Shown: positions 13,602 to 63,369, numbered from the stretch's first letter. The stretch is DNA of 64,000 bases from Pseudanabaena frigida (GCA_003242085.1 QBML01000010.1:41983-105982); one strand, 5' to 3'. Notes: generated by a model from the sequence alone, not told the origin. A program made the numbers and translations.

Positions 13602-13728
13602 GCATTATTATCTATGAACTTAAAGTCTAGTTTAGCCTGATTTCGATGACTGCCATTGTCAACGAGCTTTGCACATGGTAAACCAATAAAGCAAAGAGAG
13701 GCAGTGCGAAGCACTACCACTTTTTAAT

Positions 13729-14325
13729 TTATTGCTCTTTCAGCCGATACCAGAAAAGTGTCAGCAAAATGATTCCAGTTAGCAATCCGTAAATCGCACC
13801 GATAAAAAGTGTCAGAAAATATCCTAATTCACTCATTAATAGACTGCCAATTAGGACGCTGATATACCAACTTGCCGTGGTTCCGACAATCCACCAGTTT
13901 GACAGCTTGAAGTCTTGTCTTAAGATCGTCCACTGTGCTAATCCCATTGAAAAACCACGCAGACAAGTATACATCGCTAAAAAATCAACTGCGTCTCCAT
14001 AGGTAATCGCTAACTGAAAACTCGCCCAAGAACTCAGATACCCACCCACGGTACCGCCAATCGAAGTCGTCCATAACCATCCCCTCCCCAAAATATATTT
14101 TCTGAGCGCTAGCCACTGTGCTGCCGCGATCGCCAAGCTCATCGCTGTAAAACTCAGTAAAATGCCAAGATTGCCTTGTATGTAATATGTGACGAAAGTA
14201 CTGATTTTGCCGCCAACTGAGTAACCGATCGCGGTTGCTACAACCCAAAGCGGTAAAAAGCTCCAATGTGGTTTCCGTATGGTTAGCCTTTTTACTCTAA
14301 ACTTTATCCTAAGCTTTTCTAGCAA
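13729..14325 (-). CDS. Hypothetical multi-pass membrane protein (start uncertain)
   Basis: About six hydrophobic helices with repeated AQW.LR motifs. The TTG start lies only 17 bp from the divergent gene, so the true start may be internal. Confidence 0.65.
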   Translation of the reverse strand: MLEKLRIKFRVKRLTIRKPHWSFLPLWVVATAIGYSVGGKISTFVTYYIQGNLGILLSFTAMSLAIAAAQWLALRKYILGRGWLWTTSIGGTVGGYLSSWASFQLAITYGDAVDFLAMYTCLRGFSMGLAQWTILRQDFKLSNWWIVGTTASWYISVLIGSLLMSELGYFLTLFIGAIYGLLTGIILLTLFWYRLKEQ

Positions 14326-14342
14326 AGATTTGAGCCTAATTA

Positions 14343-15350
14343 ATGAGAAGACTATACTTTTTACTTCCAGGAACTACAAGTAAATTTGCCTGTGGTGGAT
14401 TGTGGGCAGAATTAAAAACGCTAAGACTGACGCAACAGGTTTGTTCTGCGGAAGTAGTTACTTATCGCCAACGCGAGAAAGATCATCTATGGCTCGATGA
14501 TTTGCTAAATACTGATGACACTAATCGCGCCTTAGATGATGTAATTTTTGTGATGTGTTGGGGCTTTGACGTTGCCAAACTAGCTCCTAAGTTAAAGTCA
14601 CTTAATGCGATTTATCATGCCCATAGTGTCGGTTATGGATTTAACTTGTCATCCAGTGTGCCAATTATTACAGTCAGCCGCAATACGCTAGGCTACTGGG
14701 GGCAGCGATCGCCCCATGCGCTACTTTACTATTTACCTAACGAGATTTCTGATAAGTTTCATGATTACCAAGGCGATCGCGATATTGATGTTTTAGTTCA
14801 GGCTCGGAAATCTTCTCGCTATTTGATGAAACAATTAATTCCCGCTTTGCAAGATCGCTGTAATGTAAAAATTGTTGATAGTTATGTAGAGGATTTAGAA
14901 GGATTATTTAATCGAGCGAAAGTTTATCTATATGATTCGGCAGAGTACTGGGCAGTGCAAGGTGTAACTGAAGGCTTTGGACTGCAACCAATGGAAGCTA
15001 TGGCATGTGGATGTCAAGTTTTTTCAAGTATCAATCACGGCTTATCCGATTATCTAGATCCAGCTTTTAACTGTTATAAAATTGCTGGTTATTCTCAAGA
15101 ATTCGATCTGCAACGCATTCTCAAAGTAATTCATAGTGAGAAAAAGCTAGCTTTAGCACCAAGCATTTTAGAAGAATATCGATCGGAAAATATTATTAAT
15201 CGCTTACAAGTAATATTAGATGACTTAAATGAATTTTTCGATCGCAAACAATCCTACCAAAGCGATATTCCAGATTTAAATTACTGGCAAATTATGAAGT
15301 TGCGATCGAAAAGAATATTCACAAAGTTCAGCAAAAAATTAAAGAATTAA
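14343..15350 (+). CDS. Glycosyltransferase (GT-B, GT4-like)
   Basis: C-terminal EGFGLQPMEAMACGC motif. Confidence 0.8.
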   Translation: MRRLYFLLPGTTSKFACGGLWAELKTLRLTQQVCSAEVVTYRQREKDHLWLDDLLNTDDTNRALDDVIFVMCWGFDVAKLAPKLKSLNAIYHAHSVGYGFNLSSSVPIITVSRNTLGYWGQRSPHALLYYLPNEISDKFHDYQGDRDIDVLVQARKSSRYLMKQLIPALQDRCNVKIVDSYVEDLEGLFNRAKVYLYDSAEYWAVQGVTEGFGLQPMEAMACGCQVFSSINHGLSDYLDPAFNCYKIAGYSQEFDLQRILKVIHSEKKLALAPSILEEYRSENIINRLQVILDDLNEFFDRKQSYQSDIPDLNYWQIMKLRSKRIFTKFSKKLKN

Positions 15351-15379
15351 AAGAAGTGACGCAAAACGTCACTTCTTTT
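15349..15379. terminator. Hairpin at glycosyltransferase stop, 13-bp stem, likely bidirectional terminator
   Basis: AAAAGAAGTGACG-CAAAA-CGTCACTTCTTTT between convergent genes. Confidence 0.65.
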
Positions 15380-15403
15380 TGCGTGTTTAGGCTTCATGTA
15401 GTA

Positions 15404-15482
15404 CAAGAAATTTTTTGAAAGTTTTGCTTCGCAAAACTTTCAAAAAATTTCTTGGTTTTTGAGAAAGTGCAAAGCGCTGTAA
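15404..15482. repeat. Long hairpin element, family B copy 1 (24-bp perfect stem + GTGCAAAGCGCTGTAA tail)
   Basis: CAAGAAATTTTTTGAAAGTTTTGC-TTC-GCAAAACTTTCAAAAAATTTCTTG; tail at 15467-15482. Confidence 0.9.
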
Positions 15483-15487
15483 TTCTT

Positions 15488-16342
15488 TTAGTTCTTAACC
15501 AGTCCCGTTAATGGAGAACTCGCACTTGCATAAGCTTTGATAGGAATTCTGCCCGATAAATAGGCGGTTCTTCCTGCTTCGGTTGCCATACCCATTGCTC
15601 TTCCCATAGCAACTGGATTACTAGCACAGGCGATCGCGGTATTCACCAACAAAGCTGCTGCTCCCAACTCCATCGCCGCCGCCGCTTCGCTCGGCACACC
15701 GATTCCCGCATCGACAACTACAGGTACTTTTGCCTCTTCGATGATGATCGAAATATTGGCGGCATTATTAATCCCTTGCCCTGAACCAATCGGTGATCCG
15801 AGAGGCATCACGGTGACGCAACCAATTTCTTCAAGGGTTTTGGCAAGCCTTGGATCGGCATTGATATAAGGCAGTACCGCGAAGCCTTCTTTGACCAACT
15901 GTTCGGCAGCTTTACAAGTTCCCAGCGGATCGGGTAGTAAATACTTAAGATCGGGAATTACTTCTAGCTTGACAAAATTATTATCTTCTTGACCCAAGAT
16001 TTTTGCCATCTCGCGTCCTAATCTTGCTACGCGCACCGCCTCATCGGCAGTTTGACAGCCTGCGGTATTTGGCAAGAGCCAATATTTGCTCCAGTTGATC
16101 GCTTCACCCAGTCCTTCATGTCCTGCCGCATTGGTTTGCACTCTTCGTACCGCCACGGTGACAATTTCGCAGCCACTAGCCTCGATCGCCTGACGCATCA
16201 CATCAAAATTGGCATATTTACCTGAGCCAGTCATTAGTCGCGATCGGAACTTACGACCCGCAATTTCGAGCAGATCGTCAGATAAATCCGTAGAGTCAGA
16301 TATTTGGTTACTTAGAGTGAAAAAAGGCGAAGAAGCGATCAT
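15488..16342 (-). CDS. thiG: Thiazole synthase
   Basis: [55 protein letters not shown]. Confidence 0.97.
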
Positions 16343-16375
16343 ATCAAGGGATTAAAAGGTTATTTGCAAATCTCA

Positions 16376-16407
16376 AGGATTAAATGTGCTTGCGCGCATT
16401 TAATCCT
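16376..16407. repeat. Intergenic hairpin (14-bp stem, one G.T pair)
   Basis: AGGATTAAATGTGC-TTGC-GCGCATTTAATCCT. Confidence 0.7.
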
Positions 16408-16538
16408 ATGCTAATCAATTTCAAGGATATATAACAGTTTGCGGTTTGAAGGCGCAATTTTTTATTAAGATACTCTAGTGTCTTCTGTGATATCCAAAAT
16501 TTCCATAGTATTCCCATAGCAAGTAGCAATTTAGTTTC

Positions 16539-17486
16539 ATGGCTAACCTCAAATCTATCCGCGATCGCATCGGCACTGTTAAGAATACTCGCAAGATTAC
16601 TGAAGCAATGCGTCTTGTCGCCGCCGCAAAGGTCAGACGCGCTCAGCAGCAAGTTTTAGCAACTCGTCCCTTTGCCGATCGCCTCGCTCAAGTTCTCTAT
16701 CGCCTCCAGCAGCGCATCACTTTCGAGGATGTCAGTCTACCCTTACTCGACAAGCGTCCTGTTAAAACCGTTGGTCTACTGGTAATTTCAGGCGATCGCG
16801 GTCTTTGTGGTGGCTATAACTCATCGATTATCCGTCGTGCTGAAGCTCGTGCTAAAGAACTAAAAGAACAAGGTATTAATTACACCTTTATTTTAGTTGG
16901 TCGTAAGGCTGCGCAATACTTTGCCCGTCGCGATCAACCGATCGCCGCTAAGTTTACTAACTTAAACCAAATTCCTAATGCAGCTGAAGCTAATGCGATC
17001 GGTGATGAAATTACTTCAGCATTTTTAGGAGGCGTAATCGATCGTGTCGAGCTAATCTATACCCGCTTTGTGTCTTTGATTAGCTCTCGTCCCGCCGTGC
17101 AAACTCTATTGCCCCTTGAGCCACAAGGTCTAGAGCCTCAAGACGATGAAATTTTCCGCCTAATTACTCGTGGTGGCAAGTTTCAAGTTGAGCGCGAAAA
17201 ACGTGAAATTACAGTTAAGGAATTGCCCAAAGAATTAATTTTCGAGCAAAATCCCGAGCAAATCCTCGATGCGTTGCTGCCTCTTTACCTCAGCAATCAA
17301 ATCCTTCGCGCATTGCAAGAGTCTATTGCCAGCGAACTGGCTTCTCGGATGACGGCAATGAGTAATGCAACTGAGAATGCTGGCGATCTGATCAAGTCCC
17401 TCACCTTGCAGTACAACAAAGCACGTCAAGCAGCCATTACTCAAGAAATCCTTGAAGTTGTTGGTGGCGCAGCCGCTTTAACTTAA
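16539..17486 (+). CDS. atpG: F0F1 ATP synthase subunit gamma (atpC in cyanobacterial naming)
   Basis: [11 protein letters not shown]...[63 protein letters not shown]; includes the cyanobacterial insertion. Confidence 0.98.
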
Positions 17487-17525
17487 ACAAAAAGAGCGGT
17501 GCGTAGCACCGCTCTTTTTGTTTAA
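17483..17525. terminator. 20-bp perfect hairpin with GC-GTA-GC cap at the ATP synthase gamma stop
   Basis: TTAAACAAAAAGAGCGGTGC-GTA-GCACCGCTCTTTTTGTTTAA. Confidence 0.8.
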
Positions 17526-17538
17526 AGCAATTATCGAT

Positions 17539-17622
17539 CAAACTAAGAAAGATTTTGAAAGCGTTGCTTTGCAACGCTTTCAAAATCTTTCTTAGTTTGG
17601 GTTAGCGTGCAAAGCGCTGTAA
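17539..17622. repeat. Long hairpin element, family B copy 2 (29-bp perfect stem + GTGCAAAGCGCTGTAA tail)
   Basis: CAAACTAAGAAAGATTTTGAAAGCGTTGC-TTT-GCAACGCTTTCAAAATCTTTCTTAGTTTG; tail at 17607-17622. Confidence 0.9.
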
Positions 17623-17680
17623 GTTCAAAATGTCTTAACTTACAAAACTTTTAACAGAACAAGATTCTTTCTATGACTAT

Positions 17681-17711
17681 AAAAAAGGACAGGCATCGCC
17701 TGTCCTTTTTT
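17681..17711 (-). terminator. Probable intrinsic terminator of hup
   Basis: AAAAAAGGACAGGC-ATC-GCCTGTCCTTTTTT, directly after the hup stop. Confidence 0.75.
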
Positions 17712-17713
17712 TA

Positions 17714-18013
17714 TTAGTCAGAAGGAGGGCTGACTTGTTCCTTGAAGGACTTCCCAGCCGAAAAAGCAGGTACTTTAGTGGCAGGAATTTCCATCTTTTC
17801 ACCAGTTTTAGGATTGCGACCTTCTCTGGCTTTGCGTGCTCTAGCTTCAAATGAGCCGAAGCCAACCAAAGTTACTTTGTCTCCGCCAGCTACAGTATCA
17901 ATGATTACTTCAAGCGTAGCTGAGAGGACTTCGTCGGCAGTCTTTTTGTTGACTGACAAGCCTTTCTCGGTAGCTTTTTTAGCAATAGCATCAACTAGTT
18001 CACCTTTGTTCAT
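17714..18013 (-). CDS. hup: HU histone-like DNA-binding protein
   Basis: MNKGELVDAI, GDKVTLVGFGSF, RKAREGRNPKTGE, VPAFSAGK. Confidence 0.97.
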   Translation of the reverse strand: MNKGELVDAIAKKATEKGLSVNKKTADEVLSATLEVIIDTVAGGDKVTLVGFGSFEARARKAREGRNPKTGEKMEIPATKVPAFSAGKSFKEQVSPPSD

Positions 18014-18143
18014 AGGTTTCCCCTTTATATATAGATGATTATGAGTATGAGTTTAATGTCAAAGTAATACTTGTGCGATCGCTTTTTGCAGAACCCGCAC
18101 TGCCTATGACTTCTGTTTGATCATTCTAATAGCAACTTACCAC

Positions 18144-18159
18144 TTGTGTATATACACAA
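18144..18159. promoter_or_regulatory. 16-bp perfect palindrome in the hup/EamA divergent promoter region; candidate operator
   Basis: TTGTGTATATACACAA is its own reverse complement; it lies about 130 bp upstream of the hup start. Confidence 0.4.
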
Positions 18160-20632: not shown

Positions 20633-20767
20633 ATGTAGCACCTCGGTGCGATTAAAACCTGTACCGCACGCATAGAGTGCAGTGCAGATTTTGGATTTAG
20701 TTTTTAGTCATCATTATGTAACCGCCTAGAGTATTTTCCTTAGCAAAGGTAGTTTTGCTTAGGGCAT

Positions 20768-20822
20768 AAAACCCAAATAAGTAGAGGTGGTGCGAAGCGC
20801 CGCCTCTACTTATTTGGGTTTT
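20768..20822. repeat. Long hairpin element, family A copy 1 (26-bp stem, GC-GAA-GC cap)
   Basis: AAAACCCAAATAAGTAGAGGTGGTGC-GAA-GCGCCGCCTCTACTTATTTGGGTTTT, with two G.T pairs. Confidence 0.9.
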
Positions 20823-20985
20823 GATTTGTCAAAGATATCTCTTGCATCGCTATAAATCTAGAGAGAGAGGTATTTGTGAGCTTGTCTCTATCAAATTAAT
20901 TAAATTTACAAAGCAAACTTTGACTTGGTTGTTTTGATACACTTGGGATCGATTGTCAGCGTAAACTAAAAATCTCTCTGTCGCT

Positions 20986-21861
20986 GTGGAATCGACAAAT
21001 ATGGAAATCGATAAATGCTATCAACTTCTAGGACTAACATCCAATGCGACTTTAGAAGATGTCAATAAAGCTTATAAAGCTCTAGCGCTGCAATGGCATC
21101 CAGACCGCATTCCTAGAGAGAATGTGCAGCAACAACTACAAGCTCAAGAAAAGCTTAAAGAAATTAACCATGCAAGGGATAGCGTGCGAAAGGCTACCGA
21201 GCAGAAACAATCGACGGTGCAAGCTAGATATTCTCACCAGAATTCCAATCAAAGTAATCGACAATATCACCATCATCAAACTAGGTATCAAGGTAAATAT
21301 CAGAGCACTTATCAGGGAACATATCAGTCGCAGCACCAAACTTCAGAGCGTGCTTCAGAACGTTATTACCAAAATCAATCACAGTCCTATCAGCCTTATC
21401 AATCGCGCCAGCAAAACTATAAACAGTCAAATTCTCAGGCTGAATCATATAGTGCGTCTCAAACACCGCCTCAAGCTTCCCAAAAAACACAAAAGCCAGA
21501 CCATCTGACTGGGGCTGATTTAAGTGGAGCGAATTTGCGAGAAAAATACCTTGAAGGTCGAAATCTAAGCTACGCCAATCTGAGTAATGCTGATTTAACT
21601 GATGCTTTTTTGCATCGTGTCAATTTTCAAGGAGCAAATCTTCGAGGGGCAAATTTGTTCCGTGCCAATCTATTTCAAGCTAATTTGCAAAACGCCGATT
21701 TGCGTGAAGCTAATTTAATCGGTGCAGATTTGAGTGGTGCAGATTTGAGTGGTGCAAACTTGACTGGTGCCAAGATTGGCTTTGGCGAAAAAATTATGGT
21801 CAAACTAACGAGTGTTAACCTCAAAGGCGCGACCATGCCTAATGGGTCTATACATTTATAG
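20986..21861 (+). CDS. J-domain protein with Q/Y/S-rich linker and pentapeptide repeats
   Basis: J-domain with intact HPD (LQWHPD); low-complexity middle; A(D/N)L(S/X)XX repeats. Start is GTG 20986 or ATG 21001. Confidence 0.9.
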   Translation: MESTNMEIDKCYQLLGLTSNATLEDVNKAYKALALQWHPDRIPRENVQQQLQAQEKLKEINHARDSVRKATEQKQSTVQARYSHQNSNQSNRQYHHHQTRYQGKYQSTYQGTYQSQHQTSERASERYYQNQSQSYQPYQSRQQNYKQSNSQAESYSASQTPPQASQKTQKPDHLTGADLSGANLREKYLEGRNLSYANLSNADLTDAFLHRVNFQGANLRGANLFRANLFQANLQNADLREANLIGADLSGADLSGANLTGAKIGFGEKIMVKLTSVNLKGATMPNGSIHL

Positions 21862-21867: not shown

Positions 21868-21908
21868 CAAAAAAGGATGGTAGTGCTTTGCACTACCATC
21901 CTTTTTTG
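21868..21908. terminator. 19-bp perfect hairpin with GC-TTT-GC cap after the J-domain gene
   Basis: CAAAAAAGGATGGTAGTGC-TTT-GCACTACCATCCTTTTTTG. Confidence 0.8.
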
Positions 21909-22489: not shown

Positions 22490-23329
22490 ATGTCTACATT
22501 GTCTACGTTGTGGGCGATCTCATTGAGTTCGCTTATTTCTAGTGCGTCTTCACCAATACTTTTATCTGAGATTGTTAATCAAAGCAACAATTACGATCTT
22601 CAGTTAATCTACCAAAAAAATACTGTTGTTGGTAATGATTCATCAATATCTAAAAAACGTCGATATGAGATCGAGTTTCATGCAAATTCGGCTAAAGAGT
22701 GGATGATAACAGTGAATCGTCAACCAACATTTTGGGTTAAAGATTTACCAGATGCAGCGATCGCTACGACAAAACTGGCTATGATCATGAGCGCTCAAGA
22801 CTTTGATTTTAATCTTATTGAGCCGATAGTAATAAATGGTGAATATATCGGTAAATATAAAAATGTAGTTTTATTTAAAATTCCTAAATCTGAGGTTGTA
22901 AACCCTTCATTAAACTTGACCCAATGGATTAATAATTTGCGAGTTGCTTCTGGGGCAGAGCCCTTGACCTTAGTCGAAGCTCAAAAGCGCATGTATCAAT
23001 TAGCGGTCACAAGCGAACAAATTGATGGGGTTGCTTCTTGGTATGGCCCCTATTTTCAGGGCAGACAGACAGCATCAGGAGAGCAGTTTGAACAGCAGGA
23101 TTTCACGGCTGCCCATCCTAGCTTGCCTTTTGATACTTATCTCAAAGTTACTAACCAGCAAAATGGTAGGTCAGTGGTAGTAAGAATTAACGATCGAGGT
23201 CCCTATGTGGGCGATCGCAATTTGGATTTATCTCATGCAGCTGCTATCGCCCTCAATAGTGACGAGGTTGGGGTTGTGCCAATTACTGCAACTGTGCTCG
23301 TGCCATCTGGTGCTAATCCTTTACATTAG
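22490..23329 (+). CDS. rlpA: Septal ring lytic transglycosylase RlpA family protein
   Basis: C-terminal DPBB motifs GVASWYG, TASGE, TAAHPSLPF, VVVRINDRGPY and LDLS. Confidence 0.88.
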   Translation: MSTLSTLWAISLSSLISSASSPILLSEIVNQSNNYDLQLIYQKNTVVGNDSSISKKRRYEIEFHANSAKEWMITVNRQPTFWVKDLPDAAIATTKLAMIMSAQDFDFNLIEPIVINGEYIGKYKNVVLFKIPKSEVVNPSLNLTQWINNLRVASGAEPLTLVEAQKRMYQLAVTSEQIDGVASWYGPYFQGRQTASGEQFEQQDFTAAHPSLPFDTYLKVTNQQNGRSVVVRINDRGPYVGDRNLDLSHAAAIALNSDEVGVVPITATVLVPSGANPLH

Positions 23330-23364
23330 AGAAAAGGTGCTGCTTAGCAGCGCCTTTTCTCTAA
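23326..23364. terminator. 18-bp hairpin spanning the whole gap between two convergent stop codons
   Basis: TTAGAGAAAAGGTGCTGC-TTA-GCAGCGCCTTTTCTCTAA, with one G.T pair. Confidence 0.8.
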
Positions 23365-24251
23365 CGTAAGTTTTCAGTACGAGTACCAATATCAAGAAAT
23401 TGGATCAACTTGACAGGATCGGCATTAAACATGAAAGCTCTAGAATCAGGTGTAATTTTATAACCTTCTTTTTCGGCAGCTTTTTGAGCGGCATAGGGCA
23501 GAGGACTGGATAGTTCAAACATCAAACGAGCATAAGGATCGTTCAATACTTCTGCGGTGTTGGGAAAAGAAACAGGCTGTGTATATTCGGCAGAAAGATG
23601 GATGTTATACAGCAGCACGGAACCATCAGAAGTACTCAGTTTTTTGAGGTTAAGCGCTTCCTCGGTCGGATCGCCATCCGTTGATTCACCATCAGTAATA
23701 TTGATAATTGTTGGTGGATAGCTGTTTGGATGTTTTTCAATCCAATCCTCTAGCAGGATACGCGCCAATGCAAATACGCTGCACATAGCTGTGCCACCAC
23801 TTGCCACAGGTTTAAACCAAATTGGAAAGTCGTTATAGACTTCGACAAGTCCTCCCATTCCATCAGGTAATTTTTGGGCGCGTTTTTCTAATTCGGTTGG
23901 ATTTTCGTAGATCTTCCCGATCGGGGCGATCGCATGGTTGCCAGCAACACCATTGAGTGCTGAGGCAACTTCGCTGTTGTAACCAATTACCCCAACATCA
24001 AAGTAATCATAAATTTCGTTACCTTTAACGCAACGTTGACCGAGTGAATCAAGTAAACGATTTACAGCATCAGCTACAGCCTGTGCTTTTTGGATGGGTT
24101 CACTGGTCTTATGCAAGCTTTCATTTGCACCTTTGGCTGTTCCTTTACTAGCACTTTCTCTGGAAAATGCATCTGCCATCGATCCCGATTGATCGATGAG
24201 AAATAGGAAGCAACTTGGTTGACGACGACTGATCTCTGCTGAGTAAGGCAT
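23361..24251 (-). CDS. vWA domain protein (TerY-like)
   Basis: MIDAS-type motifs FLIDQSGSM, GGTAM and NITDG. Confidence 0.82.
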   Translation of the reverse strand: MPYSAEISRRQPSCFLFLIDQSGSMADAFSRESASKGTAKGANESLHKTSEPIQKAQAVADAVNRLLDSLGQRCVKGNEIYDYFDVGVIGYNSEVASALNGVAGNHAIAPIGKIYENPTELEKRAQKLPDGMGGLVEVYNDFPIWFKPVASGGTAMCSVFALARILLEDWIEKHPNSYPPTIINITDGESTDGDPTEEALNLKKLSTSDGSVLLYNIHLSAEYTQPVSFPNTAEVLNDPYARLMFELSSPLPYAAQKAAEKEGYKITPDSRAFMFNADPVKLIQFLDIGTRTENLR

Positions 24252-28622: not shown

Positions 28623-28661
28623 AAAACAGAGAGGCGGTGCAATGCGCCGCCTCTCTGTTTT
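28623..28661. terminator. 18-bp hairpin with GC-AAT-GC cap between convergent genes
   Basis: AAAACAGAGAGGCGGTGC-AAT-GCGCCGCCTCTCTGTTTT, with one G.T pair. Confidence 0.8.
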
Positions 28662-29973: not shown

Positions 29974-30016
29974 GGTTTTTTATGTTTTCAAATTATGCAA
30001 AGCATAATTTGAAAGT

Positions 30017-32202: not shown

Positions 32203-32265
32203 TATTGGGGAATACGAAAGAATGCCTTGGATTTATAAAAATATGCATAGCATGTTTTTATAGCA

Positions 32266-35680: not shown

Positions 35681-35733
35681 AATCTAAGAAGATAGTGTGT
35701 GGTGCTTTGCGCCACACACTATCTTCTTAGATT
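35681..35733. repeat. 25-bp hairpin with GC-TTT-GC cap
   Basis: AATCTAAGAAGATAGTGTGTGGTGC-TTT-GCGCCACACACTATCTTCTTAGATT, with one G.T pair. Confidence 0.85.
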
Positions 35734-35741: not shown

Positions 35742-36398
35742 TTATTTAGGAATGCGAGAACCTTGCCAATTACCAAAATTACTGGTGCTGTCAGCAGTAC
35801 CATAGCTGCCATAAAATTCCTTACACCCTTCAGCAAAAATTAAAATCCCCTTTCCTTGTTGTTTCGGTTGCTGTTTGGGTGTTTCTTGCCAATCAAAGGT
35901 AACGACGTTGTTACTCAACTTACCAGTTAACTCACCGACAATCTTGCCGCGTTCAAAGTTGGCGTATTCATATTTACCTGAGATCAGGTTTTCACTTTCT
36001 TCTTGCAATGTTACTTTCCCAAACGGCGTTTGCCAGTCTCCACTTATCTGGGATTTGCAGGCAAGGTTACTATCAGGAGTAGCTTCTGGTGCAGTCAGAT
36101 ACTGCAACCCTAACATGGTCACTACGGCGATACCGCCCAATCCTAATATTAGAATTAACCATGCAGAAGAGATTTGCCAAGCAAAGGGTCTTTGGAGAAA
36201 TTTTGGGAAATATTTCACGGAACCTTTTGTTTCTGCGGTTGTAGGAGTCGCAACTTCCTGAGTTGATTCCCCTATTGCCGAAGAAGAGCCAGTCTGTTCT
36301 TCTTCGGGTGGCAATGACTGCGATCGCTTGCTTTTAAACCAAAGTTTTTGCATAGTTAGGCAAAGTTTTGCTGCCGACACTGAACCAATTATAATCAT
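35742..36398 (-). CDS. Hypothetical single-pass membrane protein with small beta-rich C-terminal domain
   Basis: One TM helix (WLILILGLGGIAVVTMLGL), then SGDWQTPFG...GNWQGSR. Confidence 0.7.
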   Translation of the reverse strand: MIIIGSVSAAKLCLTMQKLWFKSKRSQSLPPEEEQTGSSSAIGESTQEVATPTTAETKGSVKYFPKFLQRPFAWQISSAWLILILGLGGIAVVTMLGLQYLTAPEATPDSNLACKSQISGDWQTPFGKVTLQEESENLISGKYEYANFERGKIVGELTGKLSNNVVTFDWQETPKQQPKQQGKGILIFAEGCKEFYGSYGTADSTSNFGNWQGSRIPK

Positions 36399-40755: not shown

Positions 40756-42925
<2,170 letters not shown>

Positions 42926-42926
42926 T

Positions 42927-43014
42927 TATAGCTATAGCCAAAAAACCAGAAGAGAGTTGCGGCGCGAAGCGCCGCAACTCTCTTCTGGTGCTAACATAAC
43001 TGGCTACTGCTATA
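42927..43014. mobile_element. Putative 88-bp MITE-like element (imperfect 14-bp terminal repeats, TA at both ends) with an internal 21-bp perfect hairpin
   Basis: Left end TATAGCTATAGCCA; right end TGGCTACTGCTATA (reverse complement TATAGCAGTAGCCA). Inner hairpin ACCAGAAGAGAGTTGCGGCGC-GAA-GCGCCGCAACTCTCTTCTGGT at 42945-42989. Confidence 0.55.
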
Positions 43015-43026
43015 TTGTCCATAAGC

Positions 43027-53536: not shown

Positions 53537-55672
53537 ATGGCAAAGCGATCTTTAAAAGCATCAACATCAGGTGCTAGATTAGCTAAGCAGCAATTTACCT
53601 TTAAAGGTTGGACACAAGAGTATCTAGCGAGTGAAGTAGGTATCAAAACGCGGCAACCGATTTGGCGGTTTTTTGCAGGGCAACCAATTGAACGATATAC
53701 ATTTTTTGAGATTTGTACGGCTTTAGATTTGGAATGGAGAGAGGTTGCCTCCAATGCACCAGCAGAATATATCGATCGCACAGTCGATCGCATTACCAAT
53801 AACACTGAGTTAGAACCAACATCTCTAAAATTAGATGATGTAGTGCAAATGGTGCGATCGCAACGCAAGGATAAAGTTAATCATCAATGTGGCATCTTGC
53901 AACTATTAGATATTGGTCGTCCCGTCGAGCTTGACAAGATCTACATCGATGTAAATGCGATCGAACAAATCCCCAGTCAGCAAGGGATCGAAATCTCCGA
54001 TCTCGATAGTCTAGCGCCCGAAGATATCGATCGCTTCGACCTAGACAAAATCACCGCCAGACAAATCCTCGGTACAGAAGCAGTAGAGAAATATGGCAAC
54101 CTACGAGTACTGGGTAAGACAGGCTCTGGTAAGTCTATATTTCTCAAACATCTGGCAATGCAATGCAATGCTGGAAGGTTTGCTGCAAACCAAGTTCCAA
54201 TGTTTATGACGTTGCGAGATTTTGCCGAAAGTTATAAGTACAACCAGCAGTTACGCTTATTAGAGTTTATCCATCAAGAATTTCTTGAATCAGATATTTC
54301 TCACCCAGAAACCCTTAAGAAACTGCTTCACGAAGGAAGAATATTGTTCTTAATTGATGGCATTGATGAAATTTGCCAAGATGTAAAACTAGAACATAGG
54401 GTTTTAAATGAAGTTCGCCGATTTTGTGAGCGATACCACAAGAATACTTTTGTAACAACCTGTCGGACTGCCTTGCAAAAACTCACCCTGAAAGGCTTTA
54501 CCGATGTCCAAATCACTCCACTTAACGAAGACCAAATCAGCGCGGGAGCCCGAAAATGGTTTGGAGAATTTAGCAAGGCTGATGGCACTAATGGACTAAA
54601 AATTTCATCTCAATTTATGCAAGAGTTGAAATTACCAGAAAATTGGCAATTTCAGTCATTGATGACTACCCCGCTATTTTTGCATCTTGCCTGTTCCATA
54701 TTTCATCGTCAAAAGAAGTTTCCGATTAAAGCGGATTTTTATAAGCAAGGTATGGATTTGCTGGTATGGAAATGGGATGAAGCAAGAGGAATGGATCGGA
54801 ATCAATCATACCCAGGATTTGCATTACCGCAAAAGCTACAGTTGTGGAGTGAAATTGCCTCATTCACCTTTGAAAAAGGGCAATACTTTTTTGAGCAACG
54901 GGTAATTGAGGAACATATCGCTAACTCCGTACAAAATCTTACCGATACTAACTCTGAGCCAGAAGAACTTTACCAAGCGATCGAAGCCGTGTTACGCATG
55001 GTCAAGTCTCAACATCACGGACTTTTAGCTGAGCGGGCAAGGGGTATATTTTCCTTCTCCTATTCCGCCATGCAACAGTATTGTATTGCCCGTAAGATTG
55101 TTGCTGGTCAACATCTCCAACCATCAGGGCAATCTTTGCAGGAACTTGTAACTCATCTTACCGATCCTCGTTGGCATGAAATCTTTTTGCTCACGGCAAG
55201 TATGCTTCACAGTTCCGATGATTTGGTGCAGTTAATGAAACAAGAAATTAATCGCCTCGTTGCTGAATCTCCTTATTTAGAGAACTTTTTGGCTTGGGCA
55301 TACCAAAAATCCCAAAACAATCTAGAAACAAGCCCAGACTCAGGGGAGCGGAAAACTTTACATTCCTGCGATCGATTATCAAATAAAAATCACATGGAAC
55401 CCAACCTTGAGAATTGGAGCAACAATAACTGTATGACTCGGTTATGGCAGTTGCAACAAGCGATCGCCAATCGTGAAAATGTTGATGCCTCCAAACAACA
55501 AGTGTTACAAAGCTTCTATGACGCTAATCAATTGCTGCTTGACTGTCTCAATAGTAGTTGCGAAGTTACATCCAGCATCAGAGAAGAAATAGAAGCAAAC
55601 TTACTGTGTTATAGCTATTGCCGCTCTAGTTACAGCAAATTAAGTTCAAACATGTTACCAATGGAAGTATAA
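53537..55672 (+). CDS. HTH - NACHT NTPase with C-terminal helical domain
   Basis: N-terminal XRE-like HTH (GWTQEYLASEVG..RQPIWRFF); Walker A GKTGSGKS; Walker B FLIDGIDE; TPLFLHLAC; C-terminal FYDANQLLLDCLNS. Confidence 0.88.
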   Translation: MAKRSLKASTSGARLAKQQFTFKGWTQEYLASEVGIKTRQPIWRFFAGQPIERYTFFEICTALDLEWREVASNAPAEYIDRTVDRITNNTELEPTSLKLDDVVQMVRSQRKDKVNHQCGILQLLDIGRPVELDKIYIDVNAIEQIPSQQGIEISDLDSLAPEDIDRFDLDKITARQILGTEAVEKYGNLRVLGKTGSGKSIFLKHLAMQCNAGRFAANQVPMFMTLRDFAESYKYNQQLRLLEFIHQEFLESDISHPETLKKLLHEGRILFLIDGIDEICQDVKLEHRVLNEVRRFCERYHKNTFVTTCRTALQKLTLKGFTDVQITPLNEDQISAGARKWFGEFSKADGTNGLKISSQFMQELKLPENWQFQSLMTTPLFLHLACSIFHRQKKFPIKADFYKQGMDLLVWKWDEARGMDRNQSYPGFALPQKLQLWSEIASFTFEKGQYFFEQRVIEEHIANSVQNLTDTNSEPEELYQAIEAVLRMVKSQHHGLLAERARGIFSFSYSAMQQYCIARKIVAGQHLQPSGQSLQELVTHLTDPRWHEIFLLTASMLHSSDDLVQLMKQEINRLVAESPYLENFLAWAYQKSQNNLETSPDSGERKTLHSCDRLSNKNHMEPNLENWSNNNCMTRLWQLQQAIANRENVDASKQQVLQSFYDANQLLLDCLNSSCEVTSSIREEIEANLLCYSYCRSSYSKLSSNMLPMEV

Positions 55673-55784
55673 AACAATTTACTCCCTTCCCAGTAAAGAA
55701 TAAGTGGTGCGCGGCTTTGCCGCGCACCACTTATTCTTTACTTTACAGCACCTATTCTTTCGGTGCTAAGGGAGTAAATTGTTT
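55672..55784. mobile_element. Nested palindromes: 58-bp hairpin element inserted into the left arm of a 23-bp-arm palindrome
   Basis: Outer arms AAACAATTTACTCCCTT|AGCACC and GGTGCTAAGGGAGTAAATTGTTT. The insert at 55689-55746 contains a 24-bp perfect stem with a GC-TTT-GC cap (55692-55742). Confidence 0.75.
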
Positions 55785-58167: not shown

Positions 58168-58210
58168 CAAGAACCTGTAGCGCTTGCTGTGATGGCACTA
58201 TAGGTTCTTG
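58168..58210. repeat. Imperfect 16-bp hairpin
   Basis: CAAGAACCTGTAGCGC ... GCACTATAGGTTCTTG, two mismatches, 11-nt loop. Confidence 0.6.
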
Positions 58211-58273
58211 ATTCTGTTTTTTTAATGATATCTAGCCGCCTATATAACAATGCAAGTTTTTTGTTTAGGACAT

Positions 58274-58328
58274 AAAACCCAAATAAATAGAGGTGGCGCG
58301 AAGCGCCACCCCTATTTATTTGGGTTTT
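58274..58328. repeat. Long hairpin element, family A copy 2 (26-bp stem, GC-GAA-GC cap)
   Basis: AAAACCCAAATAAATAGAGGTGGCGC-GAA-GCGCCACCCCTATTTATTTGGGTTTT, one mismatch. Confidence 0.9.
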
Positions 58329-58337
58329 CAAAATTTG

Positions 58338-59702
58338 CTATGACTTTTTGAGAAAGGCGATCGCCTCGACGTGGGAGGTTTGTGGGAAGAAATCGATCGG
58401 TTGAATGCGGGTGATTTGATAGCGATCGCCTTCGCATAATAGTTTGAGATCTCGCGCTTGGGTGGCGGGATTGCAACTGACATAGACAATGCGCTCGGGA
58501 GCATTTTCGCGGAGAAAGGCAATTACTTCAGGTTCGCAACCTTTGCGGGGAGGATCGAGGATGACGATATCGGGTTTTAGGTTGAGAGTACCGATCAGCT
58601 CTTCAACTTTGCCCGTGTGGAACACGACATTATCGATGCCATTGAGTTCGGCGTTGAGCTTGCCTTGGGCTGTGGCTTGAGGCTGGATTTCGATCGCGAT
58701 CGCCTGTTTGACTTGTTCGGCTAAAGGCAAAGCGATCGTGCCAATTCCTGCATAGGCATCTAAGAGAACTTCCGTTCCATCTAGCTCGAGTTCTGCTTCA
58801 ATGATGTTCAGCATCTTTTCCGCTTGCTCAGTATAGATCTGAAAGAAAGTATCACCACGCAAACGGAAAGTTAAACCAGCAAATTTTTCTAAGAGATAAT
58901 CTTTGCCAGCAATACAACGGCTATCACGACCAAAAATCGCATTGGTTTTATCAGGATTACAATTGAGAATTACGCCTACTACTTTGGGATATCGCTCCAA
59001 CCAAGTTTGAGCAAACACTCCTAAGTTTGGTACATCCCAATCTCGCGTTACCAATGTAATTAGAATTTCACCTGTATTGCGACCAATCCGCAACCCTAAA
59101 TGGCGCAATAGCCCAGTATGAGCATTTTCATCATAAATTTCCCAACATTGGTTATGAATATCTCGTTTGAGTTCTTCCAACATCGGATCGAGGCGAATAT
59201 CTTGGGCAGGACATTGATTGAGATTGACAATTTTGTGGGTTCCCTTTTGATAATATCCCGCCTTAAGATTGCCATCTCGTCCCGTAGCTAAAGGATAAGT
59301 AACCTTGTTGCGATAGTGTAAACTTTCCTTCGCGCCAACAATCGGTGAAATTAGCTCCGTTAACATCTCAGACTCAAAGCCACCGATTCTCTGTAATGCT
59401 TGCAGAACAATATTTTGCTTGGTTCGCAACTGAGCAGGATAGCTAACCGTTTGCCATTGACAACCACCACATTTATCAGCAACGATACATTTGGGATGGA
59501 CGCGATCGCTTGATGGTAAGAGAATTTTTTCAATACTGGCGTTAGCAAAGTTCTTTTTTACAAATTCCAACTTTGCCGTAATGCGATCGCCAGGGACGGT
59601 ATTGGGAACGAAGATGGCGATATTTTCATAACGTCCCACCCCATCGCCACTATCAGCGAGATCGTCAATGGTGAGCGTAATTTTTTGTCCCTGTAGTAGC
59701 AT
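58338..59702 (-). CDS. rlmD: 23S rRNA (uracil-1939-C5)-methyltransferase
   Basis: TRAM domain; C...CGGCQWQ and C for the Fe-S cluster; YRNK; TFFQIY; LDAYAGIGT; LDPPRKG; YVSCNP; DFFPQTSHVE. Confidence 0.95.
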   Translation of the reverse strand: MLLQGQKITLTIDDLADSGDGVGRYENIAIFVPNTVPGDRITAKLEFVKKNFANASIEKILLPSSDRVHPKCIVADKCGGCQWQTVSYPAQLRTKQNIVLQALQRIGGFESEMLTELISPIVGAKESLHYRNKVTYPLATGRDGNLKAGYYQKGTHKIVNLNQCPAQDIRLDPMLEELKRDIHNQCWEIYDENAHTGLLRHLGLRIGRNTGEILITLVTRDWDVPNLGVFAQTWLERYPKVVGVILNCNPDKTNAIFGRDSRCIAGKDYLLEKFAGLTFRLRGDTFFQIYTEQAEKMLNIIEAELELDGTEVLLDAYAGIGTIALPLAEQVKQAIAIEIQPQATAQGKLNAELNGIDNVVFHTGKVEELIGTLNLKPDIVILDPPRKGCEPEVIAFLRENAPERIVYVSCNPATQARDLKLLCEGDRYQITRIQPIDFFPQTSHVEAIAFLKKS

Positions 59703-59813
59703 AGTTTCCTAAATTTATTGACTAAAGGCAACGCAAAGCATTGCCTGTTTTATAACCCTTGAAGAGCATTTAAATTGTTTGGTTTTGATCTAAGCGTTAA
59801 GCGCTGAATACAA

Positions 59814-60320
59814 TCAATCTGTACCTCCCCACGACCAAATGGGATTACCATCTCTTACGTCTTGTTTAAGAATAGTAGGCATATAACCATTAGGATCATA
59901 CATCGCTGTCATGTCCAAAATCAGATAGACATTGCCTTCAGTAAACTGCATTCGCAAAAATGAATGCCGTTGCGTCCCACTCCGATCGGGGCTACTAAGT
60001 CCTGCGGCAGCTCGACAGTTTTGATATTTAGGTTGGAGTTTAGCAACCCACACAACGCTAAATTCATCACTTGTGACAATTTTAAATTTATCTGCTAACC
60101 AACTTAATTTTGCTGTGCCATCAAGTATGTATGCAGCCTGAATATTAGGGCGTGCTTTTTGATCGACAACAACTTCATCAGGACAAATCGAGCCATCAGG
60201 ATTGCGAGCATTAGGATATACTCTGAGCTTCAAAGTGTCAGATGAAGCATAGCTAGGTATTTGGGAAATAGCAGCTTGAGCGATCGCCAAAGTAATTAGA
60301 AACGCTTTATTTTTAAACAT
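59814..60320 (-). CDS. Hypothetical secreted protein
   Basis: Signal-like N-terminus; two Cys; ends PIWSWGGTD. Confidence 0.7.
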   Translation of the reverse strand: MFKNKAFLITLAIAQAAISQIPSYASSDTLKLRVYPNARNPDGSICPDEVVVDQKARPNIQAAYILDGTAKLSWLADKFKIVTSDEFSVVWVAKLQPKYQNCRAAAGLSSPDRSGTQRHSFLRMQFTEGNVYLILDMTAMYDPNGYMPTILKQDVRDGNPIWSWGGTD

Positions 60321-60414
60321 GATTTAGATTCATGGGGTTTCGTAAATTGACGAAATTTGCGAAGATTATCTTCCGCCAAAGAGGTTTGCTCAAGCGCTTA
60401 GCGCTGTATGATTT

Positions 60415-61617
60415 ATGGCTGTACGATCTATGACTATGCAAATTCGATTATTTCAAACACAAGATAGCGATCGCATCGCCCAGTTATTCCATGATACTGT
60501 GCGCGAGGTGAATATTCGCGACTATTCACCTGAACAGGTCAAGGCTTGGGCACCTGATGACTTGTATTTCACCAACTGGACAGAAGATTGTAGTAACAAC
60601 TTCACCTATGTTGCGGAAGAAGAGGGCGAAATTATTGGCTTTGCGCAACTAGAAACCAATGGTCATATCGATTGTTTCTTTTGTCATAAGGACTATCAGC
60701 GCTGTGGTGTGGGAACGCGGCTATATCGAGCTATCGAAGCCAAGGCTCTGGAATTAAAAATCGATCGCTTATTTGTAGAAGTGAGTATTACCGCGAGGGC
60801 ATTTTTTAAAAGTCGTGGCTTTAAGGTTGTTAAGGAGCAACAAGTTGCTTGTCGGGGTGAAAAGCTCACCAACTTTGTGATGGAGAAGTCTCTAGTAAAA
60901 TATCTAGAGAACCCCGATCGGTTTGTGGTGACAACTTTTTACCATTTTGCCGATTTGACTAATTACCGAGAGATGCGATCGCCCATTACGGAATTTTGCA
61001 ATTGCCATGAACTCAAGGGTGTAATTTTACTAGCACCAGAGGGAATTAATTCCACAATTGCTGGTAGTCGCGAAGGTATTGATGCGCTATTAAGTTATCT
61101 TCGTTCCGATCCGCGTTTACAAAATTTGGAACATAAGGAAACTACTTCTGATGTCATTCCTTACAACAAACTTCGGGTAAGGCTTAAAAAGGAATTAGTG
61201 AAGTTTGGAGTGTCGGGTATCGATCCTAGTAAAGAAGTGGGAACCTATGTCGATCCTAAGGATTGGAATGCGTTAATTTCCGATCCAGAAGTAATCGTTA
61301 TTGATACGCGCAATATTTACGAAGTGGAGTTTGGTACTTTTAAAGGCGCGATCGATCCGAATTTAGATTTTTTCTATGAGTTTCCCAAATATGTCGAGGA
61401 GAATTTAAGCGATCGCAAGCAGCAAAAAATCGCTATGTTCTGCACGGGTGGCATACGTTGCGAGAAAGCAAGTGCTTATATGTTGGCTCAAGGCTTTGAT
61501 GAGGTTTACCATCTCAAGGGTGGTATTCTCAAATATTTAGCAGAAATTCCTCCCGAAGAAAGTCTCTGGGAAGGTGAATGTTTTGTTTTTGACGATCGCA
61601 TTGCGACTAAGGGATAA
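60415..61617 (+). CDS. trhO: GNAT acetyltransferase fused to TrhO-like (YceA) rhodanese tRNA hydroxylase
   Basis: Residues about 8-158 are GNAT (HKDYQRCGVG, TARAFFKSRGF, NFVMEK). Residues about 170-400 carry GVILLAPEGINSTIAG, IDTRNIYE...GTFKGA, MFCTGGIRCEKAS, YHLKGGILKY and GECFVFDDR. Confidence 0.85.
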   Translation: MAVRSMTMQIRLFQTQDSDRIAQLFHDTVREVNIRDYSPEQVKAWAPDDLYFTNWTEDCSNNFTYVAEEEGEIIGFAQLETNGHIDCFFCHKDYQRCGVGTRLYRAIEAKALELKIDRLFVEVSITARAFFKSRGFKVVKEQQVACRGEKLTNFVMEKSLVKYLENPDRFVVTTFYHFADLTNYREMRSPITEFCNCHELKGVILLAPEGINSTIAGSREGIDALLSYLRSDPRLQNLEHKETTSDVIPYNKLRVRLKKELVKFGVSGIDPSKEVGTYVDPKDWNALISDPEVIVIDTRNIYEVEFGTFKGAIDPNLDFFYEFPKYVEENLSDRKQQKIAMFCTGGIRCEKASAYMLAQGFDEVYHLKGGILKYLAEIPPEESLWEGECFVFDDRIATKG

Positions 61618-62419
61618 ATGGTTTCGTTATTTCCTGCGCCATTAACAAGAGTTCGGTATGGCTCACTACTAGGGTGGGAAAACTGCGGCTACTATAATCC
61701 TTACCCATTTCTAAGGGAAAGATATTTTGACAATCCTCTAATGGAATCCAGATCGCGCCGATCGCTTTCAGAATTACCCATACAGCCGCAATATCCCAAA
61801 TCTTGGGAGTAGCTTCCACTGCGCCAATGGTGGAACCGATCGCGACGGTTAAAATGTTATAGCTTGCTACACCTAACATCCGCAATTTGAAAGGGAACTT
61901 GGATCTGCCCATTTTTTCGAGACTGCGGGAACAGGCACTAAAGAAGTAATTACTGAGAGCATCAGGATCGGGTGAAGTTTCAGGTAAATGGATTGGCGTG
62001 TCGTTGAAAAATGCTGCTGAGCCATGCTCATCTGACCAACCATAAATATTTTGGCGCAATGGCGGTATAGCAACGTAGCCAAATACAGGCGTACCATGAT
62101 GCAATAAACCTAGAGAAATTCCCCAAATTGGAATCCCGCGTGCAAAGTTAGTTGTGCCATCGAGAGGATCGACTACCCAAGCCCATTCGCGATCGGGTAA
62201 AACTTGCGTCGATTCTTCAGTTAAAACGCCATATTCAGGAAATTTTTTTTCGAGGGCAGCTTTGATATAAGCATCAGCCCAGCGATCGCTTTTGGTGACA
62301 AGGCTACCATCGTCCTTAGCGATCGCCACTCGCGCCTGTTCAAAATCGGCTAGCAGGCGATCGCCGACCTGCTTAGTTAGCTCTTGGATAAAGGGAAGAA
62401 TTGATGGCAAGTTATTCAT
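61607..62419 (-). CDS. Inositol monophosphatase family protein
   Basis: VTKSD, VLTEE, WVVDPLDGTTNF, KIWDIAA. Confidence 0.92.
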   Translation of the reverse strand: MNNLPSILPFIQELTKQVGDRLLADFEQARVAIAKDDGSLVTKSDRWADAYIKAALEKKFPEYGVLTEESTQVLPDREWAWVVDPLDGTTNFARGIPIWGISLGLLHHGTPVFGYVAIPPLRQNIYGWSDEHGSAAFFNDTPIHLPETSPDPDALSNYFFSACSRSLEKMGRSKFPFKLRMLGVASYNILTVAIGSTIGAVEATPKIWDIAAVWVILKAIGAIWIPLEDCQNIFPLEMGKDYSSRSFPTLVVSHTELLLMAQEITKPFIP

Positions 62420-62520
62420 AGATTGTTAGCATAACTCAGAATTCATGAGGCTAGAAGCGTCCCCTCTAATTGTGCGGTAAAATGCAATCATGTTAGGAAG
62501 TATGAGGATTTTGTAGACCT

Positions 62521-63318
62521 ATGAACTTGAGCTTAAACCTGAGTCTAAGTTTAGGTCGCGTTTGGGCGATCGCCACCAATGTATTTCGCGAAACCGTGCG
62601 CGAGCAGGTACTTTATTTATCTTTGCTATACACCCTGATCTTGATATCAGCAATGATGTTGCTGCCAGAATTTTCCTACGACTCATCGGCAAAGATGATC
62701 GTTGATACGGGGATCGCGGCGATCGAGGTAGTGAGCTTGATTGTGGCTGTATTAGTCGGTACTAATCTGATCAATAAAGAGATTGACAAACGCACAATTT
62801 TTATTCTGATTGCCAAACCAATGCACCGCGCTGAGTTTGTGCTTGGTAAACATCTAGGATTGACGGCAGTAATTGCGGCATTAGTGTCGATAATGTCTGG
62901 AATTTTTATAATTCTGATGACAATTAAGCAAATTCCAATTCCGATTCCTGCGATTCTCACGGCCAACTTTTTTATCTTTTGGCAAATCATGTTGCTAGGG
63001 GCGATCGCGATTTTCTTTGGCTCCTTTACAGGTTCGCTAATTGCTTCTCTGCTAACACTTGCTGCTTATTTAATTGGTAACTTTAGCCGCGATTTGTTGC
63101 TGCTAGGTGAAATTTCTAAAAATCCTAGCTTGCAGACAATCACGCGCACTCTGTATATGATTTTGCCCGACTTGTCCCGTGCTAATCTCAAAAATGAGGC
63201 AGTTTACAACATCTTACCGAGCCTGCTCGATATGTTTAATAACAGCATCTATATTTTGAGCTATGCGTTGTTGACTCTAGCGATCGCCATTCTCATCTTT
63301 GCCCGTCGCCAATTTTAA
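62521..63318 (+). CDS. ABC-2 type transporter permease
   Basis: ATNVFRETVR, LINKEIDKRTI..LIAKP..RAEFVLGK; six TM helices; ends FARRQF. Confidence 0.88.
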   Translation: MNLSLNLSLSLGRVWAIATNVFRETVREQVLYLSLLYTLILISAMMLLPEFSYDSSAKMIVDTGIAAIEVVSLIVAVLVGTNLINKEIDKRTIFILIAKPMHRAEFVLGKHLGLTAVIAALVSIMSGIFIILMTIKQIPIPIPAILTANFFIFWQIMLLGAIAIFFGSFTGSLIASLLTLAAYLIGNFSRDLLLLGEISKNPSLQTITRTLYMILPDLSRANLKNEAVYNILPSLLDMFNNSIYILSYALLTLAIAILIFARRQF

Positions 63319-63342
63319 ATAAAGAAGTACTGCTTTGCTGAT

Positions 63343-63369
63343 GAAGGGTGGCGCTTTGCGCCGCCCTTC
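63343..63369 (+). terminator. 12-bp hairpin with GC-TTT-GC cap after the permease
   Basis: GAAGGGTGGCGC-TTT-GCGCCGCCCTTC, with one G.T pair. Confidence 0.65.

Follow-up and report, generated by a model that had tools for sequence, protein, structure and literature searches.

The repetitive extragenic palindromes (REPs) of Escherichia coli and Pseudomonas are tagged with GTAG or CGTC and occur with REP-associated tyrosine transposases, or RAYTs (PMC3116915, PMC3733652). In Nostocaceae, the small dispersed repeats (SDRs) of Elhai et al. (2008) are described in two later sources as very short hairpin-forming modules reported to be mobile and precisely inserted (PMC5861425, PMC4390886), and one of these sources reports their absence outside this family (PMC5861425). 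Other reference systems are the bacterial miniature inverted-repeat transposable elements (MITEs) with hairpins or terminators, such as Correia/NEMIS, ERIC, RUP, and the cyanobacterial Nezha. A process of a different kind is template switching, which homogenizes the arms of inverted repeats, makes perfect stems, and inverts spacers (PMC8794818, PMC8604942), and small hairpin-loop inversions occur in plastid DNA as well (e.g., PMC6005162). Here, these systems are compared with the hairpins of a stretch of 64,000 nt from Pseudanabaena frigida (the window, C1:41983-105982 of a 67-contig genome), whose arms vary and whose loops of three nucleotides are closed by a common cap, GC-NNN-GC. In the reading that we consider likeliest, and which is favored with some reserve, these capped hairpins are palindromes of the terminator type; some are borne by MITE-like repeats, template switching maintains their perfection, and GC-N3-GC is the favored loop closure.

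The genome, of 5.39 Mb and 41.8% GC, belongs to a Pseudanabaena relative; it carries the cyanobacterial palindrome GCGATCGC in 8,602 copies, and its closest named relative, as judged by one protein (88% amino-acid identity), is Pseudanabaena sp. SR411. When the window was scanned for hairpins with a 3-nt loop and a score of at least 9, 18 were found and 17 of them were GC-capped, whereas 30 dinucleotide-preserving shuffles of the same sequence gave a mean of 0.5 hairpins and no capped one. The cap is, as the initial annotation of the window had proposed, a discrete and non-random feature common to hairpins with differing arms and flanks. All 14 hairpins listed there are present with the loops given, those at 13708 and 59735 being weak, and the hairpins at 17681, 29986, 32234, and 41580 were added to them. 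An Rfam scan of the window matched no family.

Genome-wide, 922 perfect hairpins have a stem of 13-36 bp and a 3-nt loop, against a chance expectation of less than one. The GC..GC closure is found in 773 of these (84%), with C at the first loop-adjacent position in 95% and G at the second in 85%. A scan tolerant of mismatches raised the number of capped hairpins to 1,122, of which 776 are perfect, 230 have one mismatch, and 91 have two mismatches; most of the apparent 5-, 7-, and 9-nt loops come from this same structure when a mismatch falls close to the tip. The cap is kept in 50 of the 79 representatives that remain after de-replication of the arms, and a single tip of 7-8 nt is common to hundreds of otherwise different hairpins. 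As many as 53 capped hairpins lie at contig ends, and therefore the repeats are probably behind many of the assembly breaks.

The population is confined to one genus. The commonest tip, GCGGCGC-N3-GCGCCGC, has 12-595 copies in each of 24 congeners and 0-1 copies in 16 other families of the class, and in a survey of 300 genomes, drawn from 134 genera of the phylum, no other genome had more than 10 copies; where a few copies were present, the reversed control pattern mostly reached a similar number. Similarly, perfect stems of at least 10 bp number 36-99 per 100 kb in the congeners versus 3.6-11 in three outgroups.

The way in which these hairpins vary points to a process acting on DNA rather than on RNA, because their mismatches are strand-symmetric, the orientation of their loops is independent of the direction of transcription, and the loops flip. 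In the genome, 85% of the arm mismatches are transitions, evenly divided among T.G (109), G.T (97), A.C (108), and C.A (103). Relative to transcription of the upstream gene, mismatches of the G.U type (115) and the A.C type (111) are about equally frequent, and the loops are GAA in 79 cases versus UUC in 103, and AAA in 87 versus UUU in 86. The initial annotation had called several mismatches G.T-compatible; such mismatches do occur in the window, but as mere transitions within this even split, and selection for G.U wobble was rejected, with no bias either on the plus strand or in the transcript sense. The type of mismatch showed no significant replication-strand asymmetry across contigs (heterogeneity p=0.30), and the run of T.G mismatches in the window is therefore a matter of local chance.

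Loop flipping is seen in the repeat family A1, which consists of TATAGCAATGCAAGTTTTGCTTAGGACAT, a hairpin of 55 nt, and GATTTGTCCTAGCTATCTCTTTCATTGCTATA. With the flanks oriented alike, the loops are GAA in 13 copies, TTC in 10, AAA in 6, and TTT in 9; both orientations occur on identical arms, and relative to the fixed flanks the loop is flipped in about 50:50 proportion. Among 39 copies there are 29 distinct arms, and 29 copies are perfect. A length of 55 nt is kept by 33 of 36 copies of the hairpin, which varies by substitutions only, and the idea that it is an independent insert in the A1 repeat was rejected on account of this fixed length. Across four families, arms diverge from the consensus at 4-13% of sites, whereas the two arms within a copy differ by only 1.3-3%. 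Most departures from the family consensus (141 of 179) are mirrored in the other arm, and 41 of 68 distinct mirrored variants are private to a single copy and therefore arose in place. Orthologous hairpins show the same homogenization of arms: the one at 17483 compared with its counterpart in the relative G015, and the one at 29986 compared with that in G006, differ by mirrored changes and each member is perfect. These patterns show a strand-symmetric DNA process that keeps the hairpins perfect, and we infer template switching, as its best explanation, to be the mechanism. The remark of the initial annotation that d(GC-GNA-GC) forms a stable single-stranded mini-hairpin fits the symmetric mismatches, the flipping loops, and their independence of transcription.

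Only one of the 1,122 capped hairpins lies in a clearly real gene, namely ligA (40817-42925), and the remaining genic calls concern short doubtful ORFs or gene ends. Among 12 species of the genus, the loop of this palindrome is read in frame as GC-GAA-GC (Ala-Lys-Gln) in three, GC-TTC-GC (Ala-Ser-Gln) in five, and TTT (Ala-Leu-Gln) in two, with CTC and AAA in one species each. Here, too, the spacer is inverted at a fixed locus. The arms also change in mirrored fashion among species (GGCAG/CTGCC versus GGAAG/CTTCC), and two species, G042 and G008, hold an imperfect version, GAAGATTTTGCC(A/C)AAAA(A/G)AATCTACC. Inside this essential gene, both transposition and termination can be dismissed as causes. 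A passage from GAA to TTC requires three adjacent substitutions, and the polymorphism of the protein, from Ala-Lys-Gln to Ala-Ser-Gln or Ala-Leu-Gln, is made by a flip of the three-base loop. As a separate observation, some other species carry at the same ligA position an insertion of a palindromic repeat with G/C runs, such as CCCCTCGCCCTCTGGGAGAGGGGCTGGGGGTGAGGG (listed in Table 1). Similar C/G-run hairpins occur at the intergenic sites L026 and L019 in G002 and G015, and in this repeat the genus seems to have a second family of hairpins.

If template switching is the mechanism, it would take place within the palindrome during replication, one arm being copied from the other, and it would shrink the spacer to the minimum of 3 nt and at times invert it. 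Single-stranded DNA hairpins are stable in the form of d(GCGAAGC) and of C.G-closed triloops. GC-N3-GC may accordingly be the most stable closure of a 3-nt loop in single-stranded DNA, and palindromes ending on it would fold, and hence homogenize, most efficiently. The MITE-like repeats disperse the hairpin cores that they carry. Throughout the genus, the hairpins form a population of near-perfect palindromes, with a 3-nt spacer closed by C.G and then G.C.

Several points weigh against this account. The thermodynamic interpretation of the cap draws on the literature on d(GCGAAGC) and C.G-closed triloops. One tip of 7-8 nt across hundreds of differing hairpins suggests spread or conversion between loci, beyond local maintenance. 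Template switching is universal, yet the main tip is abundant only in this genus, which leaves a lineage-specific factor unaccounted for. Loss of hairpin-processing nucleases was considered as such a factor and does not discriminate: every congener has the large subunit of exonuclease VII, as do 15 of the 16 outgroups, whereas none of the 41 sampled cyanobacterial genomes has the SbcD_C domain, so that neither explains the restriction. Termination, for its part, would be a role deduced from anatomy and placement, and 16% of divergent spacers also carry a hairpin.

A further proposal is one that we hold to be unlikely: an activity specific to Pseudanabaena would read the GC-N3-GC mini-hairpin in single-stranded DNA and write, spread, and homogenize palindromes across the genome. 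This activity could be an unrecognized structure-specific enzyme or a peculiarity of replication or repair. If it exists, the hairpins would be self-propagating mini-palindromes co-opted as terminators, and coding sequence would occasionally be rewritten, as in the Lys/Ser/Leu polymorphism of ligA through loop inversion.

An alternative without any special DNA process is that the hairpins are ordinary intrinsic terminators, or hairpins stabilizing RNA, shaped by selection on RNA and compensatory substitutions. Their placement is in its favor. The density of capped hairpins is 3.1 per kb in convergent spacers, 1.17 in tandem, and 0.57 in divergent ones, and one or more occur in 39% of the convergent spacers. 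Where genes are in tandem, the stem begins a median of 29 nt past the stop codon, versus 114 nt ahead of the next start. The distal 5' arm averages 52% A and 17% T, with A exceeding T in 89% of hairpins, and past the tip it hardly contains C; being a palindrome, the structure shows an A-rich 5' arm and a T-rich 3' arm on both strands. A simple terminator scan flags many of the capped hairpins, which have the GC-rich hairpin, the T-tract, and the post-stop position of intrinsic terminators. Cyanobacteria are not known to have Rho. Taken together, anatomy and position make it most likely, in our preferred reading as well, that the hairpins act as bidirectional intrinsic terminators. In a model cyanobacterial strain, canonical terminators account for a minority of operon ends (PMC12642595).

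The initial annotation had also held that many stems are longer than termination needs. This is true, perfect stems of 20-30 pairs surpassing those needs, but most of the surplus is pairing between A-tract and T-tract, as in bidirectional terminators, and a two-way design accounts for much of the excess length. As an explanation, however, RNA selection is improbable. Neither the parity of G.U-type and A.C mismatches nor the indifference of loop orientation to transcription is what it predicts, and against fixed flanks the loops are found in either orientation. Three simultaneous substitutions would be required to turn GAA into TTC, and yet both loops recur in the coding sequence of ligA, where no terminator can be wanted.

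When hairpins were listed with their flanks, repeat families of about 100 nt with conserved non-palindromic flanks were recovered (A1, A2, B1, B2, C, D, and E), and about a third to a half of the capped hairpins are the cores of these MITE-like repeats. Loose flank similarity links 519 hairpins and leaves 557 solitary, and under strict modules abutting the stem a shared flank is lacking in 700 of 1,095. The families A1, A2, B1, and B2 count 15-39 copies when the flanks are conserved on both sides, and looser clustering gives groups of up to 87. Terminal inverted repeats among the families are TATAGCAATG...CATTGCTATA or TACAGC...GCTGTA, those of A2, B1, and B2 being TATAGC/GCTATA or TACAGC/GCTGTA. 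With a length of about 100-120 nt, A1, A2, B1, and B2 agree with MITEs in size, copy number, and terminal inverted repeats, which applies to only about a third to a half of the hairpins. Other species of the genus also have the 100-nt repeats, and no autonomous element with the same terminal ends 400-3,000 nt apart was evident in the genome. The remaining hairpins are solitary and lie just past stop codons; cap, loops, and arm composition are identical in solitary and repeat-borne hairpins. The arms in the window had been described as unrelated. This is correct for part of the set, but the hairpins at 20794 and 58300 belong to the same repeat, A1, and those at 15428, 17568, 42966, and 55716 to B2, B1, A2, and a C-like repeat, respectively.

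At the same intergenic site, different species often have unrelated capped hairpins, and some have none, as at 23321 in G018 and 29986 in G015. Where G018 lacks the hairpin corresponding to 23321-23369 (locus L022), a bare GC-AAT-GC stands in the place in which other species hold a capped hairpin, perhaps as a remnant of decay or as a seed. Another case is 55689-55746, which was examined as a clean insertion of 58 bp and upheld in part only: in the SR411 orthologue the initial six bases (cccagt) are present as well, along with other nested hairpins, so that the gain in this genome is about 52 nt at a site that was already complex. In the region 55672-55784, where the C-like hairpin divides the arm of an older one, the site is a hot spot rather than one clean insertion.

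A second alternative is that of very small self-propagating palindromic modules, comparable to SDRs, which a genus-specific, structure-specific enzyme reading GC-N3-GC would insert or copy. The confinement to one genus, the tip shared by hundreds of differing hairpins, the unrelated hairpins at one intergenic site in different species, with none in some relatives, and the nesting of one hairpin in the arm of another all agree with such modules. We nevertheless give them a small chance. In a search for empty sites, the flanks of every hairpin were joined and the genome was searched with them; this gave 24 candidates, of which the inspected ones, of A1 and B2 type, are deletion derivatives of the repeats, produced for instance by slippage between CAAAAC repeats, and no unoccupied target with clean boundaries was found. 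The constant length of the A1 hairpin, with variation by substitutions alone, also speaks against such modules, and the ligA palindrome, which is imperfect in two species and lies in coding sequence conserved across the genus, argues against an inserted module at that site. No candidate enzyme was identified.

The initial annotation had suggested that one HUH (Y1) enzyme recognizes or propagates the hairpins. Capped hairpins are indeed extragenic, palindromic, and numerous, and the genome holds three Y1_Tnp-type genes, but the 1.5 kb around each of these genes is free of capped hairpins. The RAYT model is passed only by a gene on contig C33 (186 bits versus a cut-off of 80), which is flanked on both sides by GTAG-tagged REPs of its own, GTAGGGTGCGTTA-N8-TAACGCACC. 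These have loops of 6-8 nt and about 24-35 copies genome-wide, and form a family distinct from the capped hairpins, so that a small classical REP/REPIN system exists beside them. An IS200-like TnpA is encoded on C29, without hairpins nearby. Two congeners that are 99% complete, G003 and G012, gave no Y1_Tnp hit, yet they contain 165 and 403 copies of GCGGCGC-N3-GCGCCGC, and in 400 kb of G003 the GC cap is present in 78 of 87 perfect hairpins with a 3-nt loop; conversely, these hairpins are missing from outgroup genomes in which Y1 hits number up to 22. For the capped hairpins, neither a flanking RAYT, nor co-occurrence with it across genomes, nor a GTAG/CGTC foot tag was found, since the consensus of the flanks has no conserved tetranucleotide except in B2, the only family with GTAG, 2 nt ahead of its stem. 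The repeats contain a single central hairpin and not the two subterminal ones of IS200/IS605-derived elements. A Y1/HUH transposase is not needed for the upkeep of the hairpins, and the proposal that they are REP/REPIN-like or IS200/IS605-derived elements, whose single-stranded hairpins a RAYT or TnpA recognizes and propagates, is largely refuted and hardly credible. REP-like palindromes, as a lesson for annotation, need not depend on a RAYT.

The features of the window are collected in Table 1, together with two entries from elsewhere.

Table 1. Capped hairpins and repeats of the window, with the RAYT gene and the ligA insertions found outside it; positions refer to the window unless a contig is named
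Feature	Position	Strand	Description
Degenerate capped hairpin, GC-GAA-GC	13684..13734		24-nt arms, 5 mismatches in 24 pairs
Family B2 repeat, ~100 nt	15381..15483		Core 15404-15454, perfect 24-bp hairpin, GC-TTC-GC
Solitary perfect 20-bp hairpin, GC-GTA-GC	17483..17525		Begins at the atpG stop codon (atpG 16539-17486)
Family B1 repeat	17522..17623		Core 17539-17599, perfect 29-bp hairpin, GC-TTT-GC
Solitary perfect 14-bp hairpin, GC-ATC-GC	17681..17711		Directly past the minus-strand gene 17714-18013
Family A1 MITE-like repeat	20741..20853		Core 20768-20822, 26-bp hairpin, GC-GAA-GC, 2 T.G mismatches
Solitary perfect 19-bp hairpin, GC-TTT-GC	21868..21908		7 nt past the stop of 20986-21861
Solitary 23-bp hairpin, GC-TTA-GC	23321..23369		2 mismatches; fills the gap between convergent genes and overlaps both stop codons
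Solitary 18-bp hairpin, GC-AAT-GC	28623..28661		1 T.G mismatch; between convergent genes
Solitary perfect AT-rich 13-bp hairpin	29986..30014		Closes on GC-AAA-GC nonetheless
Solitary AT-rich 13-bp hairpin, GC-ATA-GC	32234..32262		1 mismatch
Solitary 25-bp hairpin, GC-TTT-GC	35681..35733		1 mismatch; 9 nt past the stop of the minus-strand gene 35742-36398
Perfect 16-bp palindrome, GC-GAA-GC	41580..41614	+	Within ligA, adenylation domain
Family A2 MITE-like repeat	42929..43015		Directly past the ligA stop; core 42945-42989, perfect 21-bp hairpin, GC-GAA-GC
Composite	55672..55784		Outer 23-bp hairpin with 9-nt loop (55672-55688 and 55747-55752 pair with 55762-55784); outer arm split by a family-C-like perfect 24-bp hairpin, 55692-55742 (GC-TTT-GC)
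Family A1 repeat, non-standard right flank	58241..58334		Core 58274-58328, 26-bp hairpin, GC-GAA-GC, 1 mismatch
Weak capped hairpin, GC-AAA-GC	59724..59748		~9 pairs, C.A mismatch; under the score threshold of the scan
Solitary 12-bp hairpin, GC-TTT-GC	63343..63369		1 T.G mismatch; past 62521-63318
RAYT gene, locus L003	C33:33200-33960		Outside the window
ligA orthologues with G/C-run insertion	L080, L081, L083, L090, L095		In G009, G021, G043, G019, G006, respectively

Several of these sites could be followed into relatives. In G015, the hairpin at 17483 differs in its loop and by one compensated change of the arms, the loop of the one at 17681 is TAA, and the one at 28623 is perfect; the B1 hairpin (17539) was not found in the corresponding, much longer interval of the same relative. 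Two compensated changes distinguish the G006 orthologue of 29986, and unrelated capped hairpins occupy the site of 21868 in relatives. In the transcript of 35742-36398, the mismatch of the hairpin at 35681 is C.A, not G.U. Copies of the B2 repeat at 15381..15483 have about 90% identity. This repeat is immediately preceded by a perfect 13-bp hairpin with a 5-nt loop (CG-CAAAA-CG, 15349-15379), which overlaps the stop codon of the gene 14343-15350, and the gene is trailed by these two stacked terminator-like hairpins. A perfect 14-bp hairpin at 8039-8072, GC-AATTAA-GC, has the same GC/GC closure around an AT-rich center of 6 nt. The genome additionally contains about 100 perfect palindromes (stem of at least 13 bp) with a self-complementary 4-nt center (CATG, TTAA, TGCA, or GATC), that is, with zero spacer; they have no preference for the GC cap and seem to be a separate class.

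With more than 1,000 sites per genome, the capped hairpins would constitute an unusually large natural record of template-switch mutation, which could be used to measure template switching and the contribution of the loop-closing sequence. In addition, the 39% of convergent spacers with a capped two-way hairpin are a natural set of candidate strong terminators, and the genus lets the requirements of RNA polymerase for a terminator be tested.

Compared with the known systems, the capped hairpins resemble REP/REPIN-RAYT systems in that many extragenic palindromes lie at the 3' ends of genes, several families occur per genome, and mirrored changes conserve the hairpin. They depart from them in lacking an association with a RAYT and a conserved tetranucleotide tag, in stems that are far longer and more perfect (often 17-30 bp), in arms with the A/T polarity of terminators, and in a loop fixed at 3 nt with GC/GC closure. 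SDRs, as described, are likewise very short hairpin-forming repeat modules of cyanobacteria, but are fixed 21-27-mers, whereas the arms vary here; this distinction is drawn from the description of SDRs.

The four families A1, A2, B1, and B2 are like MITEs in their length of about 100 nt, their terminal inverted repeats, their end-to-end folding, and their tens of intergenic copies. Unlike in MITEs, about two thirds of the capped hairpins are without a recognizable repeat flank, and unrelated families share one cap. Neither a target-site duplication nor an autonomous partner was identified for the capped-hairpin families. With bidirectional intrinsic terminators they share the GC-rich stem, the 5' A-tract and 3' T-tract readable as a terminator on either strand, the enrichment between convergent genes, and a start within tens of nucleotides of stop codons; they differ by being nearly always trinucleotide-looped, with much longer and more perfect stems, and would be terminators by prediction. 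No prior description of template-switch palindromes on such a scale, or with such restriction to a genus, was found in literature searches. Template-switch (quasipalindrome) mutation differs from the present case in the number of sites, the one preferred cap, and the limitation to a single genus, and it agrees with it in the mirrored multi-base changes, the perfected stems, and the presence of both loop orientations at orthologous sites, even in a gene.

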